Assembly: GCA_903912435.1 (NCBI GenBank)
Contig: CAIWHI010000271.1
Location: 23,327 to 87,326, forward strand
Length of the DNA stretch: 64,000 nt
Direction of reading: 5' to 3'
Origin: an uncultured Bacteroidota bacterium
Lineage (GTDB): Bacteria > Bacteroidota > Bacteroidia > Chitinophagales > Chitinophagaceae
The first letter of the stretch is position 1. Each line of letters begins with the position of its first letter. Below are positions 3,233-27,357 of this stretch, in pieces. The position numbers were made by a program, and so were the translations under genes. The notes under the pieces are model-generated. The model was not told the origin of the DNA and did no database searches. It saw only the letters and a program-made list of their open reading frames with translations.

Positions 3233-3323
3233 TGGTACCTCTGCCGGGAGTCGAACCCAGATTGACCAATTATCTGTTGCTACGGGATATAAATCCGCTG
3301 TTTTACCGTTAAACTACAGAGGT
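3233..3323 (-). tRNA. tRNA with TAT anticodon (Ile) and long extra arm
   Basis: ACCTCTG/CAGAGGT ACCA, loop TTTATAT, about 21-nt extra region. Confidence 0.7.
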
Positions 3324-4293: not shown

Positions 4294-4365
4294 TGGTCGC
4301 TTGGGGTAGAATCGAACTACCAGCTACCGGCTTATGAGACCAGAGCAATAACCATATTCCAAGCG
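4294..4365 (-). tRNA. tRNA-Met/Ile2(CAT) with shortened D-arm
   Basis: CGCTTGG/CCAAGCG, loop CTCATAA, D region only AATATGGTTATT. Confidence 0.75.
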
Positions 4366-4621: not shown

Positions 4622-5244
4622 TAATTTCTACCTTTATAATAACCTAATTCAATAAATTTGTCAAGCTCTTCTTTTTTAATTTTTTTATTTTCTTGACCAT
4701 TAGTAATCCAACAAGTCCCATATTGAGAATTCTTTTCACCAGTCTGATGCTTATGATTTTTTATTTTATTGATAGTATTAATACTGTGTTTTTTGCCAAG
4801 AAATGTTCCAGGTTTACCTTTTTGTGATTCTGATATTTTTTTTCGTATATTATCAGCATATCCAGGTATTTCTATTTTATTTTTCTCTTGTGTTTGCCGC
4901 CCTCTTTTTAAATCATCTTTCACGTTAGATGTTTTGCCGTTCATACCATATATATTTTTACCTGAACGATTGATATATCCAAATCCACCTTTACCACCAT
5001 CACAAAGATTGTAACTCTCTTCGGATAATACAACAAGTTCTTTTTCTTTAGCTATCATTTTTTCTTCATTATCAAATACATGAAGTATTTCTTTGGTAAA
5101 GTTTTGAATATTATACTTCTTAATAGCTCGTTTAATAAGCTTACCAGAGCCCATATAACCGTCTTCTAAATTTTCTGTTTTGTGCATTCCAATATAAAAT
5201 TTATTGTTAATTTTATTAGTAATTTTATAGATTGTATATAACAC
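4621..5244 (-). CDS. GIY-YIG (Seg-like) homing endonuclease
   Basis: YTIYKITNKINNKFYIG..YMGSG..YNLCDGGKGG; NUMOD-type C-terminus; TATAAATA at 5282-5289. Confidence 0.9.
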   Translation of the reverse strand: MLYTIYKITNKINNKFYIGMHKTENLEDGYMGSGKLIKRAIKKYNIQNFTKEILHVFDNEEKMIAKEKELVVLSEESYNLCDGGKGGFGYINRSGKNIYGMNGKTSNVKDDLKRGRQTQEKNKIEIPGYADNIRKKISESQKGKPGTFLGKKHSINTINKIKNHKHQTGEKNSQYGTCWITNGQENKKIKKEELDKFIELGYYKGRN

Positions 5245-5389: not shown

Positions 5390-6040
5390 CTAACCTCGTT
5401 TTTTACCATTTTGTGGTTCAAATTCAGGCAGTAATTTCTTAAATCTTTGTACTAAGTTTGGTAAAGTTTTTTTATATCCTGTTTGGATAACAAACTCTTC
5501 AAACCCAACCTTCTTATATATCATATAGTATTCTCTATATAAGTCAAGTTCTTTTTTACGGCGTATTTCGTTTTCAACTTTTTTCTGTTGTTTGAGCTTT
5601 TTCTTTTCACCCAATCCTTTTTCAGCTAAAGTTTTCGAAACGCTTTCACGTATTTTATTTTTCAATTCAATTGATTTTGTTTTACCAAACTGTGAATTAT
5701 TTATTCCTGATTGAGACAGGCTTTGTATCTCGCTAAATTTTATTCTCAAAAATTCAAATCTTTTAGAAGTTATAACCCTCTGTTGATTTTCACTTTTACA
5801 AACCAACATCATCATAAAAGCTTTGATCATTTTATAATAATTTACAGTGCCTTCAGAATACATTTTTATCAAAAGCAAATGACAGATAAAATGTTCTCTT
5901 GCTGATAAATTTACAAGATTATTTTTATCATCTGTTCCACCTAAAGATTTTGGAACAATATGATGACATTCAACATAACCATTATACGGGTTATTTTTTC
6001 GATTGTCAATAATGTTGTAATAAATTTTAGAGTAATTCAT
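5390..6040 (-). CDS. HNH (Mob-like) homing endonuclease
   Basis: ECHHIVPKSLGGTDDKNNLVNLSAREHFICHLLL. Confidence 0.9.
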   Translation of the reverse strand: MNYSKIYYNIIDNRKNNPYNGYVECHHIVPKSLGGTDDKNNLVNLSAREHFICHLLLIKMYSEGTVNYYKMIKAFMMMLVCKSENQQRVITSKRFEFLRIKFSEIQSLSQSGINNSQFGKTKSIELKNKIRESVSKTLAEKGLGEKKKLKQQKKVENEIRRKKELDLYREYYMIYKKVGFEEFVIQTGYKKTLPNLVQRFKKLLPEFEPQNGKKRG

Positions 6041-6086
6041 ACTGTTAATCCTTTCAAAGTTATATATACAACCTTGAACTTTATGA

Positions 6087-6123
6087 TTAACAGCCGGGTG
6101 CTCTACCATTGAGCTATCTAGGA
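6087..6123 (-). pseudogene. 5' half of tRNA-Asn(GTT), truncated after the anticodon loop
   Basis: TCCTAGA TAGCTCAATGGTAGAGC ACCCGG CTGTTAA, then the HNH leader. Confidence 0.8.
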
Positions 6124-13760: not shown

Positions 13761-13855
13761 TTTATACCATCGCCTAAAAAAGACGTACATAAGCATTTTT
13801 GCATAGTAGCTATTCACTGGGGTCTATGTACCTTATTTTGCTAGGGTGGTATATT
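13761..13855. promoter_or_regulatory. divergent promoters (ATGTAC..GGTATAAA / ATGTAC..GGTATATT) around a GCATAG-TAG-CTATTC dyad
   Basis: Symmetric arrangement between divergent ORFs. Confidence 0.55.
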
Positions 13856-13884
13856 AAGACATAATGTGAATGAGGTGTAAATAT

Positions 13885-14367
13885 ATGTTAACTTACTATG
13901 ATATTCCGGACAAGTATGACCGAGACATGGTCATTGCGGCCGGCGAGTTCTTCCTATCAAAGTTGGTTAGCAAGCGCCTGATCAATAACCTAAACATCGA
14001 AGTCAACTTCGTCAAGGGAATGGTTAAGGCTTGCAAAATCGATGCTTGTATGAACTGGGAGGATCGTCTTACCAAGCCTCGTGAGTTCTCTATAGACATC
14101 GATGCCTCTATGCCTATTAAGAAAGCACTTACCACTTTAGCCCATGAACTGGTGCATGTTAAACAATATGCTATTGGCGAAATGTGTGATAAGAAAGGAG
14201 CTATTGTGGAATGGCTCGGTGTTAAGTATGATCAAGAAGAGCTTGACTATTGGGATCATCCTTGGGAAATCGATGCATTCGGTCGTGAAGCAGGTCTATA
14301 TGTAAGGTTTATGAAGTTCTACGGAGAGAAAAATGAAAAAGCAAAAAAGAAAAGTCGCAAAGCGTAA
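13885..14367 (+). CDS. HExxH zinc metallopeptidase-like protein
   Basis: TLAHELVHVKQY..YWDHPWEIDAF. Confidence 0.85.
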   Translation: MLTYYDIPDKYDRDMVIAAGEFFLSKLVSKRLINNLNIEVNFVKGMVKACKIDACMNWEDRLTKPREFSIDIDASMPIKKALTTLAHELVHVKQYAIGEMCDKKGAIVEWLGVKYDQEELDYWDHPWEIDAFGREAGLYVRFMKFYGEKNEKAKKKSRKA

Positions 14368-14485
14368 TCCGGTGGCCAGGGTCTTAAAAGATCCGCGTTA
14401 TAGGAAGAGGGTCGTTAAGCTTAAGACTGCTTATGACCGCAAAAAGAAAGGGGAGCTAATTGCTCCCCTTTTTGATATCTGCTAA
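14333..14485 (+). CDS. ArfA-like alternative ribosome rescue factor (50 aa, absent from ORF track)
   Basis: RNPVARVLKDPRYRKRVVKLKTAYDRKKK resembles the ArfA core; GGAG RBS. Confidence 0.65.
   Translation: MKKQKRKVAKRNPVARVLKDPRYRKRVVKLKTAYDRKKKGELIAPLFDIC
14447..14473. terminator. bidirectional intrinsic terminator inside the ArfA-like ORF
   Basis: AAAGGGGAGC-TAATT-GCTCCCCTTTTT. Confidence 0.8.
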
Positions 14486-14641
14486 AATTTTATCAATTTC
14501 CTCATAAAGAGGATTGAGCCGGGTATTCACCAGTTCCAAATATCGATTATGATCATAAGCTTTAAGTGAATCCGATATATCAATCTTTACTTCAATTAAT
14601 CTATCGATGAGTTTTAATAAATCATGATTCATCACATTCAA
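14456..14641 (-). CDS. hypothetical protein
   Basis: Short ORF following regA operon. Confidence 0.55.
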   Translation of the reverse strand: MNVMNHDLLKLIDRLIEVKIDISDSLKAYDHNRYLELVNTRLNPLYEEIDKILADIKKGSN

Positions 14642-14963
14642 TCACTTCTTCTTCACGCGATAAATGAAATATTATCGCCTTTGATTCTGGATTAATTTCT
14701 TGTTGAATATTAAGTAGTTTACGTAGTTTCATAAGCTTCTTAATAGCATTCGAGATGGTTTCTCTAGTTACTTTATCATTATTATCCATCTCTAGGTCGG
14801 TCAATGCGCCATGAAGGTTCTCATCGATGGATTCATCTACACTAATATAAGTTCCATCTGATAGCATCTCGGTTCGATAGTCTGGAAATAATGTATCAAT
14901 CACTATACGAAGCTGCTCGTTTTCAGGCAGCTTTTTCTTTTTCTTCTTCCATAATGAAAACAT
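14622..14963 (-). CDS. hypothetical protein
   Basis: 113-aa ORF. Confidence 0.65.
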   Translation of the reverse strand: MFSLWKKKKKKLPENEQLRIVIDTLFPDYRTEMLSDGTYISVDESIDENLHGALTDLEMDNNDKVTRETISNAIKKLMKLRKLLNIQQEINPESKAIIFHLSREEEVIECDES

Positions 14964-14966
14964 GAC

Positions 14967-15362
14967 TTATCTCTTTTTACCTAAGTTATATTTTGCTACC
15001 AGTTCCCATTGATCTTTATCTTTATGAGATATGATCTTAATCTGACTTATTGGTGCTCTGGTTTCAAAGTATTCATCGCAGCTTTCGATAATAACTAGGT
15101 TCCATTCTTCTAATAAGGCAGCGATGGTATTTCTTCTAGCAATATCTTCATCTGAGATATTAGTTGGCTTACCATCAAGAGCGAACATCTCCTTGAAGTG
15201 AACGATGTAGTACTTTCCCTTCTTGTGCAAGATGTGACAAGATTGAAATAGTTTATTCTCTTTTTTTGATGCTACGCCAATTCTGGTAAGCGTCTCTTTT
15301 ACTTTTAAGAAGTCTACCTCAGTTCTTAGGCTTACCTCTAAGAATGATTCGATAATAGACAT
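14967..15362 (-). CDS. regA: translational repressor RegA
   Basis: DFLKVKETLTRIGVAS..LFQSCHILHKKGKYYIVHFKE. Confidence 0.96.
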   Translation of the reverse strand: MSIIESFLEVSLRTEVDFLKVKETLTRIGVASKKENKLFQSCHILHKKGKYYIVHFKEMFALDGKPTNISDEDIARRNTIAALLEEWNLVIIESCDEYFETRAPISQIKIISHKDKDQWELVAKYNLGKKR

Positions 15363-18690: not shown

Positions 18691-19890
18691 CTAGCTAAAA
18701 AAAGACGCAAGAGAAGAAGCTTCCTCACCCCTAAGCTCATGAGTCTTAGTATGATTATACTGATAAACTAATGAACTGTCAACATAATTACGCTTATTTT
18801 CAAGCACGGCTTTCACTTCTGTAGCCATATCGACTGCAGTTTGAAAGGGAACGTTCTGACAGATATGGTTATAGCTTTGAGAAGGCTTGAGAAGCTGGTA
18901 GTCTTCAGGCAGACCCATAATACTCATGGCTTCACGGTAAGTAATGTAACGATCTTCATAGGGATGAGTCAACATCTTCGGATAATGACCTACGAAAGCA
19001 CCAATATAATTCTTAGGGACGATAGTTCCACGGCGCATGATATTCTTACCATCATCAAGCTTATGGAACATGCGATCACACTTCTCTACTTCTTTATCGA
19101 GGCCTTGTTTTGCCATCCAAGCTCCAACTTGCTTGTAAGTATGTCCATGACCCTCGATCAAGCTTTTGGCATCGAAATAACGAACCGAAACATCTTCGGC
19201 TTGCAAAATATCGAAGTGCTGACGATGAGTAATACCACCATGCACTACTTCCAAAAGATAGCGATAATATGGATCGTTTGTCGGCGTGTTCTTATTAATG
19301 ACGTCCATCATGGAATTAGACTTAACATTAGTGATGACGTCTTCGATTCGAGTATAAGGACGACGGTAATATTCGAGAATCGGTGTTTTATCACCGCGCC
19401 AGAAGAAGTAGAAAGTTCGCTCACGAACCTGAGGAACACCATGAAGCAAACTCTTGGTGCGATATAGTGTCATAGTATAACCGTTTTTCTTACCAATCTC
19501 GATAAGCTGCTTACGAATCGGTTCACCAATCTTACCGGCAAGAGCTGGAGCATTCTCACCCCAAAATACTTTAGGCTTCATATCACCGAGAACATAATTC
19601 GCTGTCTCGATCATCCATCGATTATTTGGATTATGTTCACCGTAACCCATGGAAAATAAAGATAGGCCGGCGCATGGACAAACCGAAGAAACAATATCGA
19701 CTTGATGCGGATGACGACCACCCTCATCGATGACATGATAAGGAACTTCATGGTTCCAATAGTTTAATAGATGTGATTCATTTGCCTTAAATGCAGAGTA
19801 AGACATAATGTAGTCTGGTCGTGTACCAAATACTTTGGTAGAAGCAAGAGCTTCACCGCCAATTAGCGGAATAATAGTCGCATGTTTCAT
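18691..19890 (-). CDS. C5 DNA methyltransferase-like protein
   Basis: VCPCAGLS, GENAP, GVPQVRERTF, ITYREAMSIMGLP; divergent motif I (IPLIGG). Confidence 0.8.
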   Translation of the reverse strand: MKHATIIPLIGGEALASTKVFGTRPDYIMSYSAFKANESHLLNYWNHEVPYHVIDEGGRHPHQVDIVSSVCPCAGLSLFSMGYGEHNPNNRWMIETANYVLGDMKPKVFWGENAPALAGKIGEPIRKQLIEIGKKNGYTMTLYRTKSLLHGVPQVRERTFYFFWRGDKTPILEYYRRPYTRIEDVITNVKSNSMMDVINKNTPTNDPYYRYLLEVVHGGITHRQHFDILQAEDVSVRYFDAKSLIEGHGHTYKQVGAWMAKQGLDKEVEKCDRMFHKLDDGKNIMRRGTIVPKNYIGAFVGHYPKMLTHPYEDRYITYREAMSIMGLPEDYQLLKPSQSYNHICQNVPFQTAVDMATEVKAVLENKRNYVDSSLVYQYNHTKTHELRGEEASSLASFFS

Positions 19891-20981
19891 AAGAAATCCT
19901 CAAGTGTAACCGCATTTTGTATATTGGTATTTATATCTGGCTTCCTTATAGCATTCCATTCCCAACCTTGCCAATGTGGATAGAACTCGCGCGAAAGGTG
20001 AACCGATTTAGGTTTTTCCATATACTTAAAATCTAGTTCGCCATGCGTATTAATTAGATTCGATGTCCATCTAAAGAACTTTACTTTCTTTTTTTGATGC
20101 TTTATGGCTTCATCGATGAAAATGTTTCGAATCTGATTCCTTTCATGCCAATTGCCATAGAATGGTGCGCCTTCATACCAACCGGTTTTAGGAATGGAAC
20201 GCTTTGGATTCTCGATTGGCAATGGTTCATAAAGGCGAATAGTCGCTCCAGTCAGTTTGGAGACCCGCTGAGCCTCTTCAAAATAATCTTTTACAAGCTT
20301 ACGTGTAGCTTCTTCTGGGTCATGCTGCCTAGCCAGGTGATGACGGATGTCAATGTTACCGAAGTAGTATTCCAGCTCTTTAAACTTGTTACCAGATTCA
20401 TTAATGATAAAGCTATCCAAACCCATCTTTAATGCGCCATGCAGTGTTTTAAATGGAACAGAATTGACCATCCAACCGGGGCGATACATACAAATTGCAT
20501 GACTATCACCCATTGCAATCTTATCATAAAGCACTAGAGTATTAGGATTGACCATGACCGATTCCTTCTCCATTCGAAGGATATTATCCCAGTCTACTTC
20601 TGCCCAACGTGGATCAATTTCCTTGTTTTTTTCATTAGCCAAGTCTACCTTATGCTTAAGCTGAGCATGGTAGTCCGGAAAGTCAATAATCAAAGAAAAG
20701 ACTTTACCTTTGAACTTAGAAAAATTCACAAAGTTATCGACATGCGGAAATTCTTTTAGACCACCGAACAAGTTAAGATGGCCGCTCCAATCATTCCCAT
20801 GATAGACATAAAGAGCATCGAACTTATTGAAATCACTGTGGTACAAATTAAGAGACATATTAACAGTAACATCTACTCCAGCGCATTTAAGCTGATCGGC
20901 ATAAATGACGCCTTGACCGGCTCGATGTGATGATAAGTTCTTAGCTATAGGAATGAAGGGTGTGGCTAACAACGCGCGCAT
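19887..20981 (-). CDS. conserved hypothetical in base-modification cluster (SGNH-like)
   Basis: GDSH, FGNIDIRHH, KSVHL motifs. Confidence 0.65.
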   Translation of the reverse strand: MRALLATPFIPIAKNLSSHRAGQGVIYADQLKCAGVDVTVNMSLNLYHSDFNKFDALYVYHGNDWSGHLNLFGGLKEFPHVDNFVNFSKFKGKVFSLIIDFPDYHAQLKHKVDLANEKNKEIDPRWAEVDWDNILRMEKESVMVNPNTLVLYDKIAMGDSHAICMYRPGWMVNSVPFKTLHGALKMGLDSFIINESGNKFKELEYYFGNIDIRHHLARQHDPEEATRKLVKDYFEEAQRVSKLTGATIRLYEPLPIENPKRSIPKTGWYEGAPFYGNWHERNQIRNIFIDEAIKHQKKKVKFFRWTSNLINTHGELDFKYMEKPKSVHLSREFYPHWQGWEWNAIRKPDINTNIQNAVTLEDFL

Positions 20982-21864
20982 TAATATTTTTCTCCCAGTC
21001 GACGTTTGAATTTATCTTATCATAGATTGTCTCATCTGTCAACTGTGGTTCTTTACCGACGTTCCAGAATAAGATATTTTTGCCTGTATTTTTAGGAATG
21101 TACTTCCACACCTTAGCATCATAAGATCTAACTGCAGGAAATGGTGGGAGGTTCTTTTCCTTTTCATTGGTTTGAAACGGCAATGGTTCACTAATGACTT
21201 CAGCCCTTCCAAGTTCGCCTGCTTTCAAGTTCCTAGCTACTGCTACAGAATGAAATTTGGCATTTGGCCATGCAATTTGAAGAGCTCTGGATAACACACC
21301 GGTGGAGATAGCAACATAAACTTCATCTGGTGGATCAATCATAGAAGCAGCATGAACTATTCCTGCTGTAGCAAGTTCGTGTCTTAAACCAAGTGGAACA
21401 AAGAAACTATCATTCTTTTCTGCCCATTCCTTGGCGTATTTGTTCAGATTAGGCATAGCGGCGATCCTTTTGAAGATCGGCTTAGCACCTTGTTCAATAC
21501 AGCATGCTTGATGAAGTGAGATTGTTTGGCACGCCGGCATGAATAACACTACTTCTTTGTTTCGATGTCGAGCTACGTCTAAAATCGAGACACCGGCCAA
21601 TCCAACTCTTGGCTGTGAATAAACAATGGTTTTATGATTCGACTTAAATGCCAGTAAATCACCTGCTCTGGTTTTAGTACCAACGATAAGATCATCTCTG
21701 ACTACTCTAACACCCTCATGCTCAATAAGGACTGGATCTGGATTGTATGGTGTCCATCCTTCCGTAAGTGATAGGTAATACTTCTTAGCTTCTTCAAAAG
21801 TGCAACCTGGATAAAGATAAGCTTCTTTGTTAATTCCATCTATAACATGATTATCATGTGCCAT
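20941..21864 (-). CDS. fold-type II PLP-dependent enzyme (thymidine hypermodification)
   Basis: VRDDLIVGTKTR, VAISTGVLSRALQ, YDAKVW, LFWNVG. Confidence 0.8.
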   Translation of the reverse strand: MAHDNHVIDGINKEAYLYPGCTFEEAKKYYLSLTEGWTPYNPDPVLIEHEGVRVVRDDLIVGTKTRAGDLLAFKSNHKTIVYSQPRVGLAGVSILDVARHRNKEVVLFMPACQTISLHQACCIEQGAKPIFKRIAAMPNLNKYAKEWAEKNDSFFVPLGLRHELATAGIVHAASMIDPPDEVYVAISTGVLSRALQIAWPNAKFHSVAVARNLKAGELGRAEVISEPLPFQTNEKEKNLPPFPAVRSYDAKVWKYIPKNTGKNILFWNVGKEPQLTDETIYDKINSNVDWEKNINARVVSHTLHSYS

Positions 21865-22840
21865 TGTATTTTCCTGTTTTTAAAGACCAATTAGAAGGGT
21901 ACACCCATTCATATGGAATTTGTTTTGTTTGCTGTTTTACACCGTTTCTAATTGCCAGATGTTTATAATACATACAAAGTTTATCCTCAACATTGAGATA
22001 CTTTTGTTTCTTGATGGGATTAAGCGGATGCTCGACCAAATATTTCATATGCTGTACAAACTCATGTCCTGCTTTATTGGTCGGAATGTACTGTCCATTT
22101 TCATCGATCTGATATTGAGCTTTGCTCATATAATTTGGGCAGGCCATAACTTGGCTTAAACCATCAAAGAATCCAGTGCCACCATGAAGAAAGCTTTCAG
22201 GATCAACCCATTCTGGATGTGACATAGCAACGTGTCTAGCAGCATTTTTACATGGATACATTGCATTCTTGAAACCTTGGTCATCTACAAAGTGGGTATT
22301 CAATAGCTTAGCAAATTCCATCATAGTATAAGGTCTATTCTTAGAACCAAGCAAATTATGCATTGACTCTGCACATCGTGATGGTCCGGTCATCAACCAC
22401 TTTTTGACATCTGTTCCCTTAGGGTAATATATTTGAAATAAGTCGGACCTAGCATGCCTAACATTACTTTCCATTCGTTCTTTGAGAGCATTATTCTTCC
22501 ATGCCAAATAAGTCTGCCAATGTTCATTAGTAAATGAGAACAATACACAAGCATTTAATACAGTCAATGGATCTTTGATTTTAGAGACTTCATCAACAAA
22601 AGGACATTCATGCCAGTGAAGTCGGTGTGAAAATTGTTGATAATTGTCTTTTAGTAGTGAATCTTCTCGTTTATCATACGCAACACAAAAGTCAAAGAAC
22701 TTCGCAGTCCTTTGCTTTTGAGTCCAATTTTTCATCCAACTTTCTTTTGGTTTTTCTTTTTCGTCTAGTTCTACTGTAGCTAGATCGCTGTAAGTGATGT
22801 CGTGCAGATCTTCACCTAAAAAACTAATTAGTGATCCCAT
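21854..22840 (-). CDS. aGPT-Pplase2-like amino acid:DNA transferase paralog
   Basis: FSHRLHWHE, NVEDKLCMY; similar to neighbouring gene and cluster context. Confidence 0.6.
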   Translation of the reverse strand: MGSLISFLGEDLHDITYSDLATVELDEKEKPKESWMKNWTQKQRTAKFFDFCVAYDKREDSLLKDNYQQFSHRLHWHECPFVDEVSKIKDPLTVLNACVLFSFTNEHWQTYLAWKNNALKERMESNVRHARSDLFQIYYPKGTDVKKWLMTGPSRCAESMHNLLGSKNRPYTMMEFAKLLNTHFVDDQGFKNAMYPCKNAARHVAMSHPEWVDPESFLHGGTGFFDGLSQVMACPNYMSKAQYQIDENGQYIPTNKAGHEFVQHMKYLVEHPLNPIKKQKYLNVEDKLCMYYKHLAIRNGVKQQTKQIPYEWVYPSNWSLKTGKYNGT

Positions 22841-22921
22841 TTATTGTTCCATTATAAATATAAATATCTGTCACGGAGTTGGCGCTCCCACAGATTCTAT
22901 AACTAGTAAGGAGTTACAGCT

Positions 22922-23101
22922 GTGTTTATTTATTACGTTTACGCATATTTAAGAGAAGATAATACACCATATTATATTGGTAAAAGTCATAGGGCTTTTA
23001 CAAAACAATCTCATTCTACCGAAACTAAGAATAAAATGTCTTTAGCTAGGAAAAAATATTGGGAACAACACCATCTAAATAAATCTGTTTTACCATTTTA
23101 A
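22922..23101 (+). pseudogene. internally deleted GIY-YIG/NUMOD3 endonuclease remnant
   Basis: YYVYAYLREDNTPYYIGK joined directly to HSTETKNKMS; TATAAATA and AAGGAG upstream. Confidence 0.75.
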
Positions 23102-24239
23102 CATATTCTTTAGGTGAAATGTTAGCTTCTTTAATTATCTTATCATCAGATGGATGTGATTTTATGCCATTAAATGTTTTTACTAAACCAAGCTCTAACA
23201 TAGCCCTTTGTCGACCATATGGATGAATAAATTTACTAGAATTCCAAATTTCATCCATATTAAGATGATTATAATCATCACCTGGACGAATATAATTTTC
23301 CAAATATCTAATAAAGTCACAACAGACGTCCTCTGCATTATATGGAATCGACCCGGTATCTTCATAGATCTTCATCATAACACGATCTAAAAAGTCTTCT
23401 TTCTTCATTCGTGAAGTAGGATTAGCCAAATATGAAATGCATTCGACAGCATTGGTTCCATAATAGAACATCGACTCTTTGTTAACATATTGAGGGAACC
23501 AATCGGCAATATCAGCAATAACAGCTGCGTATTGAAACTTATAGGCATTCATGCCATTATCATTGTTCCACTTAAACATGAAGTCGCCTACTTCTCGTAG
23601 GTCTTTCTTTTGAGCTGAAGATTCCAGCCATTCTGCCATATCTCTGGCTAAGCGAGGAGCATATTCACAAAGGTAATAGTCTCCACCACGCTTATAGTCT
23701 TTAGTCGGCTTAGGAAAACTGGGGAACTGATATCCAATAGATGTATAGAAAGGGGCATTGTAGTTCTTAATAAACTTAGCCATTTCTTCAATCGTCTTGT
23801 AGTTATACAAGTGAATCAAAATGGTATTATGATACCCAGATGGCTTAGTAGAATAGTTAATCGCAGAACCGGTAACTCGATGTAAAATGAAAATGTAAAG
23901 CCATTCCGGCAATTTAAAATCGGAATGCTTACCAGTCCAATCATTGGCAACCATCTCACGCTGCCGAGTTACCTTGCCGACCTTCATTTTCTCCCAATAT
24001 GGATGCTTATCTGTCCAACCATAAAAGCAGTCATTAATGATTTGAGAGAAACCGGCATACTTCCTTTCGACTACGTCATAAAGTTCAACATGATGCATCA
24101 GGTCATCATTAACATTGCTTTCTAAATGTGAAAGCATCCCATAAGGAGGATTAGAAGAGACGTTACATTTTTCTTGTTGATCTGAAGCCATAGCGAAATA
24201 TCGCAAGAATTCATCATAGTATTCTGTAGTCTCAATCAT
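23046..24239 (-). CDS. aGPT-Pplase2-like amino acid:DNA transferase
   Basis: YDVVERKYAGFS, HRVTGS, NAEDVCCDFIRY; cluster context. Confidence 0.65.
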   Translation of the reverse strand: MIETTEYYDEFLRYFAMASDQQEKCNVSSNPPYGMLSHLESNVNDDLMHHVELYDVVERKYAGFSQIINDCFYGWTDKHPYWEKMKVGKVTRQREMVANDWTGKHSDFKLPEWLYIFILHRVTGSAINYSTKPSGYHNTILIHLYNYKTIEEMAKFIKNYNAPFYTSIGYQFPSFPKPTKDYKRGGDYYLCEYAPRLARDMAEWLESSAQKKDLREVGDFMFKWNNDNGMNAYKFQYAAVIADIADWFPQYVNKESMFYYGTNAVECISYLANPTSRMKKEDFLDRVMMKIYEDTGSIPYNAEDVCCDFIRYLENYIRPGDDYNHLNMDEIWNSSKFIHPYGRQRAMLELGLVKTFNGIKSHPSDDKIIKEANISPKEYVKMVKQIYLDGVVPNIFS

Positions 24240-26865: not shown

Positions 26866-27357
26866 TCAAGTCCGGAGCAACGTTGGTTTCCACTTTTTGA
26901 AGGCTTGAGTTCGGTGAATTGGATTGGCTCTCGAATAAAATGGGATGCCATCCAAGTAGTCCATGCAGTGCTGGAAGGCTCGTGCTGTTAGACCAGTGAA
27001 AGTTTCTGTGCGGACTTCACCATTCGGCATAGCAAAACGAACTCGACAGTGCTGCGGCCTCTTTATCTTAACACGCATATCTGGAAATGTCAATGATGTT
27101 TCTTCAAGCATGACAATTGCTTCACTCGGTTGTACTATGCGAGGATTGAAACACGCATAATTCTGAGGAGACCCTCGCATCACAAACAATCTGTAAGGAA
27201 GACCCACTTGAATAGCAGTAAGGTAAATCGCATTGTGTTCGTACATGAACTTTACCATTTCTTGAGAAAGCTCAAGAGGATCGAATGGCGGTTCCTGAAA
27301 CTTAAATGGTTCGCTCTTTTGCTTTAGAAGAGGGTCATTATATTTTAATAGATTCAT
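26866..27357 (-). CDS. peptide deformylase-like protein with degenerate catalytic motifs
   Basis: PDF scaffold (DPLLKQKS, FNPRI, RP, GLTARAFQH) but AIYLTAIQ, ETSLT, HCMDY. Confidence 0.85.
   Translation of the reverse strand: MNLLKYNDPLLKQKSEPFKFQEPPFDPLELSQEMVKFMYEHNAIYLTAIQVGLPYRLFVMRGSPQNYACFNPRIVQPSEAIVMLEETSLTFPDMRVKIKRPQHCRVRFAMPNGEVRTETFTGLTARAFQHCMDYLDGIPFYSRANPIHRTQAFKKWKPTLLRT

Follow-up and report, generated by a model that had tools for sequence, protein, structure and literature searches.

The window analysed here, a stretch of 64,000 nucleotides, comes from a T4-like phage contig of 132 kb (C271), with Pfam matches to regA, gp62, gp44, gp45, UvsW, UvsY and gp23 and 25 tRNA genes predicted by ARAGORN. 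The source runs in which the contig occurs are lake and freshwater metagenomes, and the best matches of its clamp-loader genes are only 56-59% identical. The contig was assigned to a bacterial bin (G000) of 1,039 contigs, the longest of which after the phage contig measures 29 kb. The phage contig was probably co-binned, meaning that the bin need not represent the host. ARAGORN reported no tmRNA in the contig or in the rest of the bin, and the ArfA family (PF03889) had no match in the bin, which is 78% complete. Nearly all genes of the window lie on the minus strand, with a gene for an HExxH protein and a short ArfA-like ORF forming a small plus-strand island that converges with the end of the replication operon. 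The features of this region are the following, L166 being a related locus whose regA is 90% identical:

13847..13883, plus strand: likely promoter region of the two-gene plus-strand unit, a conserved block that contains TGGTATATT, an extended -10-like element, as well as the ribosome-binding site that serves the HExxH gene
13885..14367, plus strand: gene for a putative HExxH (SprT-like) metallopeptidase (phrog_10499, E 1.7e-30; SprT-like clusters in the Atlas)
14323..14326, plus strand: Shine-Dalgarno-like GGAG, 6 nt 5' of the ATG of the next ORF, seen in the sequence and kept in L166
14333..14485, plus strand: ArfA-like ORF of 50 aa, 19 of them Lys or Arg (phrog_20887 at E 1e-7, ArfA profile matches, substitution pattern)
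14445..14473, both strands: bidirectional intrinsic-terminator-like hairpin (fold, consensus scan, compensatory changes)
14456..14641, minus strand: 61-aa ORF that closes the convergent gp45-gp44-gp62-regA run, with its stop inside the hairpin loop
14622..14963, minus strand: conserved 113-aa gene downstream of regA, used as the marker of syntenic loci in the locus comparison
14909..14934, plus strand: second terminator-like hairpin, antisense within the 113-aa gene (consensus scan; conserved in L166)
14967..15362, minus strand: regA translational repressor of the T4-like core (PF01818, E 4e-43)

The block at 13847..13883 is almost identical in L166. A scan with the consensus promoter returned a site with 9 of 12 matches at 13838-13865, although such sites occur at chance level in the window as a whole (8 sites versus 10 in shuffled sequences). 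The longest reading frame of the HExxH gene begins at 13870 and its stop codon occupies 14365-14367; no PDB relative of its product was found. SprT-like HExxH proteins are widespread in T4-like phages, and in this clade the gene would be co-transcribed with the ArfA-like gene, which it adjoins on the upstream side in the 16 loci used for the tree. When 80 regA loci and 80 HExxH loci were compared, an ArfA-like gene was present, within the flanks that were fetched, in L166 only. On the opposite strand, the 61-aa ORF is 51% identical in L166 and stops at the same position there. The location of its stop codon within the hairpin loop places that codon inside its own predicted transcript and identifies the hairpin as bidirectional.

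Elsewhere in the window, a minus-strand tRNA-like gene with a CAT anticodon (4297-4365; Rfam, 33.5 bits) was missed by ARAGORN, and the minus-strand tRNA at 3233-3323, called as Ile, has a rare UAU anticodon and an unusually long body (91 nt). GIY-YIG and HNH homing-endonuclease-like genes (2267-2869, 4624-5244 and 5393-6109, minus strand) lie within the tRNA cluster. A peptide deformylase gene is found at 26869-27357 (minus strand), and at 18694-24239 (minus strand) a C5 cytosine methylase and, after it, four large ORFs devoid of Pfam matches possibly form a DNA-modification cluster.

The earlier note on this DNA had proposed that the unannotated 50-aa ORF at 14333-14485 is a gene, and this is borne out: the sequence is as quoted there, the GGAG site is in place and, over 29 codons compared with five relatives, third positions account for 17-20 changes and the other two for 5-8. 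DNA reads from four runs confirmed the presence of the locus, and wherever they covered the ORF and the hairpin, no change was seen. The ORF is very short, runs against the prevailing gene orientation of the window and overlaps both neighbours, its first 35 nt being shared with the end of the HExxH gene, and these are the features that could be expected of a spurious reading frame, the real element then being the terminator of the minus-strand operon alone. Given the third-position bias, the 2,407 homologous proteins described below and the conservation of the ribosome-binding site and of synteny, such a reading is extremely improbable, and comparative sequence evidence identifies the ORF as a real gene.

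The relationship of its product to ArfA, the RF2-dependent alternative ribosome-rescue factor of E. coli (YhdL; PF03889; PDB 5MGP, 5MDV, 5U4I, 5H5U and 7OJ0), depends on how the search is made. The protein on its own has no Pfam match at E <= 10, either to PF03889 or to PF23876 (DUF7230), and no NCBIfam match; a word-index search with the single sequence gave nothing useful, and a single-sequence PDB search returned only two matches, both of them ArfA, at E of about 1. Against PHROGs it matched phrog_20887, a family of undescribed function, at E 1e-7. A profile of 14 metagenomic relatives matched 2,407 proteins and reached ArfA in the PDB at E 0.002. With 17 phage-only relatives the value was 2e-4, the best six matches being all ArfA and the next non-ArfA entry standing at E 0.088, and with two SAR11 sequences added to the profile it was 2e-6, which is partly circular. 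ArfA was the only significant PDB family for all three profiles. One match, P0003, was a false match to a repeat protein and was dropped.

Measured against the Pfam cut-offs (25.5 bits for ArfA, 27 bits for DUF7230), the family occupies an intermediate position. DUF7230 was matched by nine of 14 members and ArfA by two of 14, mostly below cut-off; the closest phage relatives score 12-19 bits for ArfA, and one close relative (L257) passes the DUF7230 cut-off with 32 bits. Two Pelagibacteraceae proteins retrieved by the family-profile search combine the NxIA..L core with a KGKGS loop and pass the ArfA cut-off at 25.6 and 25.8 bits. Homologues in the Caulobacter phage Cr30 and in the pelagiphage HTVC027P (gp30) also have a full KGKGS-type loop. 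Through these SAR11, Cr30 and HTVC027P sequences the family runs, at the level of sequence, continuously into true ArfA. A tree of 46 family cores (33 columns, two rows skipped) branches with poor support, and consequently gives no donor or direction of transfer.

It could also be argued that the protein, small, basic and of the DUF7230 type, binds nucleic acid or the ribosome in another role, and that its likeness to ArfA reflects no more than composition or remote ancestry. The sequence is short and rich in Lys and Arg with a single-sequence E near 1, the Atlas names of its relatives are confined to "hypothetical" and DUF7230 clusters, and the AlphaFold model is of low confidence (pLDDT 65, pTM 0.24, one helix at 13-18) with 0 Foldseek matches in the PDB, for which reason neither the model nor the Foldseek result was used as evidence. 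This explanation is nevertheless very unlikely, considering that ArfA is the sole significant PDB family for three profiles, that the sequences grade into cut-off-passing KGKGS ArfA in SAR11 and into the full-loop forms of Cr30 and HTVC027P, and that the stop-less layout described below is a hallmark of arfA and brfA. The ArfA identity proposed in the earlier note, which had suggested a profile search as its check, is thus upheld as ancestry (E 0.002 and 2e-4 with profiles, the latter from phage sequences only and to solved ArfA structures) but not as membership of ArfA proper, given the failure of the single sequence to match Pfam or NCBIfam and the loss of the KGKGS, KH and Ala18 features. 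With several defining tests of ArfA failed, the protein is not filed as a member of that family; on these comparisons it derives from ArfA, occupies a place between ArfA and DUF7230, and probably acts in the manner of ArfA.

The core of the phage protein reads N12-P-V-A-R-V-L-K-D-P-R-Y23-R-K-R-V27 ... Y34-D-R36-K, and in the alignment from the single-sequence PDB search positions N14, L19 (as V), L20, D22, P23, F25 (as Y), R26, R28, V29, K31, K33, Y39, R41 and K42 of E. coli ArfA are kept or conservatively replaced. Its likeness to ArfA comprises the N..(A)..LL.DP.(F/Y)R.RV.K.K ... Y.RK core, a predicted helix at 13-18 and a basic C-terminal part. In ArfA, P23 was reported to stack on A1492/A1493 and L19, L24 and F25 to bind RF2 (PMC5378476), with Q27-E30 adding a beta-strand to RF2 (PMC8012679). 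Among the positions facing RF2 and the decoding centre, V17, P21, Y23, R24, R26 and V27 of the phage protein are kept or conservative, whereas L24 of ArfA corresponds to Arg22, a position occupied by Leu in several relatives. According to the available text of PMC5378476 and PMC8012679, truncation of ArfA at Met40 kills activity and truncation at Asn47 does not. In the phage protein the basic C-terminal segment would be long enough to fill the mRNA channel (past ArfA Met40, as far as Asn47), with R36-K39 and 13-14 codons following Tyr34 on the predicted truncated mRNA.

The differences from ArfA are equally well defined. Besides a short N-terminus, the phage protein has lost the GKG of the KGKGS channel-binding loop through a three-residue gap at G35-K36-G37; GKG is kept in only one of the 147 family loci examined. 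It lacks the C-terminal KH motif, which is present in seven of the 147 loci and in the cellular loci L396 and L398, and it has Arg16 in place of the small residue at ArfA Ala18, an invariant Ala standing one position earlier. These losses are what could be expected of an ArfA-derived inhibitor or decoy that plugs the empty mRNA channel, perhaps binding RF2, yet fails to open RF2 and so competes with tmRNA, ArfA and ArfB, the stop-less mRNA serving to limit toxicity or to time expression to saturated trans-translation. In agreement with this, the available text of PMC8012679 describes ArfA(A18T) as binding and recruiting RF2 without activating it. On the other hand, a SAR11 ArfA that passes the Pfam cut-off (in L250) has Lys at the Ala18 position, and KGKGS, which binds the empty mRNA channel, has no single essential residue in the account given in PMC6299226.

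Further evidence against an inhibitor comes from cellular relatives. Matches to the family profile were found in 28 of 401 sampled genomes from the class of an alphaproteobacterial MAG (G001; loci L392-L419), with housekeeping neighbours in the 10 loci scanned and SmpB in 5/5 genomes checked. This set holds both KGKGS-type and short-loop forms; among its 25 scorable loci the short loop occurs in 18, an internal terminator is called by the strict detector in four and a terminator after the stop in none. A short-loop form with an internal terminator among chromosomal housekeeping genes makes little sense for an inhibitor of rescue, and a feedback triggered by failing rescue suits a rescuer, so that the decoy reading is regarded as distinctly unlikely. 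In the available part of a survey of 15,259 genomes, arfA was recorded in 0 of 2,376 alphaproteobacterial genomes (PMC11633108).

The earlier note had also described a strong hairpin with a U-tract inside the ORF, shortly before TAA, and this proved correct. A G+C core at 14450-14468 is extended by A/U pairs to a 12-bp stem spanning 14445-14473, with a folding energy of -22.3 kcal/mol (z = -4.95); none of 200 dinucleotide shuffles was equally stable, and none of 20,000 synonymous recodings of codons 34 to stop folded as well. On the plus strand, a U5 tract (14469-14473) is followed by 9 nt and then by TAA (14483-14485), so the predicted 3' end, at about 14473-14476, falls 7-10 nt short of the stop codon. 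The product of such an mRNA would comprise residues 1-47 or 1-48, only D48-I49-C50 being encoded beyond the predicted end. In L166 two compensatory pair changes preserve the stem, and the stop is shifted further beyond it. The consensus terminator scan called the hairpin in a single orientation, that of the minus strand, whose U-tract is the stronger of the two (7 versus 6 U of 8). Rfam gave nothing above threshold at the locus, and a sub-threshold match to sraA (E 0.12) was taken as chance.

The hydrophobic tail pointed out in the earlier note is not supported as a degradation signal. The hairpin and U-tract themselves encode the residues LIAPLF, and a product of 47-48 residues would retain them, missing only the last 2-3 residues of the full-length form; the long hydrophobic destabilising tail of E. 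coli ArfA has no counterpart in the phage protein. The greater tail hydrophobicity of family members with internal terminators (+0.62 versus -0.64) was likewise set aside as independent evidence, being a consequence of U-rich and G/C-stem codons.

Whether the position of the hairpin reflects design or accident was addressed across the family with one fixed detector, a terminator being sought within 200 nt of the conserved Tyr. From 232 loci, 147 distinct ones were kept after removal of 14 lacking a regular core, seven at contig edges and duplicates. Internal terminators were found in 20, one overlapped the stop, two followed it and 124 had none, "none" not being the same as absence, since the strict detector misses bulged hairpins visible by folding (L254/L256, L403, L407 and L408). 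The terminator therefore precedes the stop in 20 of the 23 terminator-bearing loci. For ordinary genes the figure is 4 of 174 across 160 other phage loci, and 1 of 11 within C271. Hairpin starts peak just downstream of the conserved Tyr: the first 60 nt hold 22 of them (147 loci), and none of 29 other bins holds more than four. The fraction 20/147 is inflated by the second search set, for which terminator-bearing relatives served as seeds, and the loci, falling into 30 clusters, cannot be counted as independent; the first, unseeded set of 69 loci contained four internal, one overlapping and three after-stop terminators, and 61 with none. Most predicted 3' ends lie 12-21 codons after the Tyr, near the length of mature E. 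coli ArfA, given as 52-55 aa in PMC6299226.

In the loci linked to the HExxH gene, an internal hairpin is present in 11 of 16, in five lineages and with unrelated hairpin sequences (L254 and L256 being scored here from the fold rather than the detector), and the other five, whose stop is ordinary or included, group in a single supported clade (96/91). The layout also occurs where no convergent operon has to be terminated. The phages phiM12 and phiN3 have an internal terminator followed by a same-strand gene, as does the tandem clade L254/L256/L260/L332/L333/L338, in which L260, L332 and L333 have U7-U8 tracts in the direction of the ArfA-like gene. The chromosomal genes of Alphaproteobacteria (four internal terminators in 25 loci, as given above) provide further non-convergent cases.

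Several relatives depart from this pattern or deserve separate mention. In the tandem clade the internal terminator overlaps, at about 1590-1680, a sigma-70-type promoter of the following gene, its 3' arm serving also as the -35 box (TTGAC) and its U-tract as the spacer. A syntenic relative (L047:1516-1671) has no Y.RK, its RVIK strand frame entering the hairpin directly, and is possibly decayed or minimal. In L052 (about 1500-2080) an ArfA-like N-terminus is in frame with a 160-codon phage regulator-like region, as a fusion or by read-through. The Agrobacterium phage Atu_ph07 (L420:800-950) keeps the phiM12 hairpin with the U-tract gone, and in L421-L423 and L004 (phiM9, ORM_20, AF3 and IC12) the homologues overlap convergent genes, with no clear terminator. 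The homologues in these cultured rhizobial phages (L420, L421-L423, L004) are unannotated or mis-framed. The ArfA-like ORF of Cr30 (KF301602.1, 11130-11249, minus strand; L434), with its full KGKGS and ordinary stop, is unannotated too and lies two genes upstream of an RNA ligase.

A more serious competitor is that the protein is an ArfA-like rescuer with a hairpin that exists mainly for the convergent operon, read-through being high and the 50-aa protein made from a stop-bearing mRNA under little tmRNA control. The stronger minus-strand U-tract in five of seven convergent loci (equal in one, weaker in one), the plus-strand tract of only U5 and the minus-strand ORF that ends in the hairpin loop all favour it, and at this locus the convergent operon gives the hairpin a sufficient other job. 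In addition, the conserved second plus-strand hairpin at 14909-14934, 430 nt downstream, could end read-through transcripts, stop codon included, most family members have ordinary stops, and the full-length and truncated products differ by just 2-3 residues. In those bacteria that couple transcription to translation, a trailing ribosome can suppress an intrinsic terminator that lies within an ORF. Against this, in all seven convergent loci examined the stop of the opposite gene lies inside its own predicted transcript and that of the ArfA-like gene outside; internal terminators with U7-U8 tracts exist in the non-convergent L260, L332 and L333; and a terminator before the stop is almost never seen in ordinary genes. 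Leaky read-through is accordingly rated as unlikely. The recurrence of a terminator-like hairpin before the stop in relatives, non-convergent ones included, is established by the counts above (20/23 versus 4/174), and the alternative offered by the earlier note itself, that the hairpin does no more than end the convergent operon, is unlikely to account for the layout in full: the stop-less layout is likely more than convergent-operon termination. The switch is optional in the family all the same, as indicated by the 124 of 147 loci with no detected terminator and by the ordinary stops of the Acinetobacter phage Acj9, HTVC027P and Cr30.

The reading preferred here, to which a probability of roughly 55% is given, is that the gene product is a rescue factor of the ArfA type that recruits RF2 and is kept low by trans-translation in the host. 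In this model, host RNA polymerase would transcribe the HExxH and arfA-like pair and mostly stop at the hairpin, which would also stop the convergent replication operon. The hairpin being placed in the reading frame, the mRNA would likely end 7-10 nt 5' of the stop codon, ribosomes would stall at codon 47-48, and tmRNA-SmpB would tag the chain for proteolysis. Should stop-less ribosomes pile up during infection, the chain could come off untagged in another way, after which the basic C-terminal part would enter the empty mRNA channel while Tyr23 and residues 24-28 (Phe25 and Arg26-Glu30 in ArfA) engage RF2, freeing stalled ribosomes for phage mRNA. Some read-through would probably supply a basal level of almost identical protein, with accumulation occurring mainly when host tmRNA is overloaded. 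The tie to cleavage of RNA by host or phage that the earlier note had suggested, or to a specific host nuclease, found nothing in its favour at this locus.

Such a circuit has precedents. As described in the available text of PMC8012679 and PMC6881298, an internal stem-loop in arfA and brfA yields a non-stop mRNA whose product is tmRNA-tagged and accumulates only when trans-translation fails. The phage gene resembles arfA in the stem-loop placed in the ORF before the stop and in predicted mature length, and differs from it in losing 2-3 codons instead of 17-18, in being phage-encoded and in sharing its terminator with a convergent operon, in addition to the Arg residues at the Ala18 and Leu24 positions and the sub-cut-off Pfam score. 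By analogy, BrfA (YqkK) of Bacillus subtilis is the closest match for the regulatory design, with an intrinsic terminator in the ORF, nine codons lost and control by trans-translation (PMC6881298). At the protein level BrfA gave no match in any PDB search, with the single sequence or the three profiles; in the available part of PMC6881298 its homology to ArfA is limited to KH, a motif that the phage protein lacks. ArfT of Francisella, to judge from its description, is comparable as a 40-aa RF-dependent factor in which a degenerate KGKGS-like segment still works, and differs in having no internal terminator and in being served by either RF1 or RF2, as far as the accessible text of PMC6299226 goes.

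Among phage proteins, HTVC027P_gp30 is likewise phage-encoded and has a related core (hhalign probability 84%, E 7e-6, 22 columns), in contrast to which its loop is canonical (KKGRGSF), its stop ordinary and its ORF free of an internal terminator. It has been annotated as ArfA in print, on Pfam annotation and expression timing only in the available part of PMC12753301, whose supplementary table enters the protein as hypothetical, with raw fragment counts of 0-66 per sample. DUF7230/PHROG 20887 is also among the closest known families, the window protein itself matching only phrog_20887. No paper on a stop-less phage arfA or on DUF7230 was found in the open-access literature. A phage ArfA annotation is known, and what appears to be new is that a phage carries a short-loop relative of ArfA whose internal terminator is of the brfA style and has seemingly been re-invented repeatedly.

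In broader terms, it is tentatively proposed, at slightly under even odds, that the short-loop NP(I/V)A...Y.RK family (DUF7230/PHROG 20887; more than 2,400 protein clusters) may be an unrecognised branch of ArfA, wide in phages and Alphaproteobacteria, in which the stop-less switch would have been re-invented repeatedly in T4-like phages, in several cases from a convergent operon's terminator or from the -35 box of the promoter that follows, the phage sensing the trans-translation capacity of its host and supplying a rescue factor once stalled ribosomes build up in the infected cell. If so, DUF7230 would acquire a function and ArfA would extend to Alphaproteobacteria, with gene 363 of the Sinorhizobium phage phiM12 offering the same layout in a cultured system. 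Phages would then carry a ribosome-rescue factor that senses host tmRNA through negative feedback. This would add a new level at which host translation is controlled, and it may be relevant where RNA-cleaving defences make stop-less messages.
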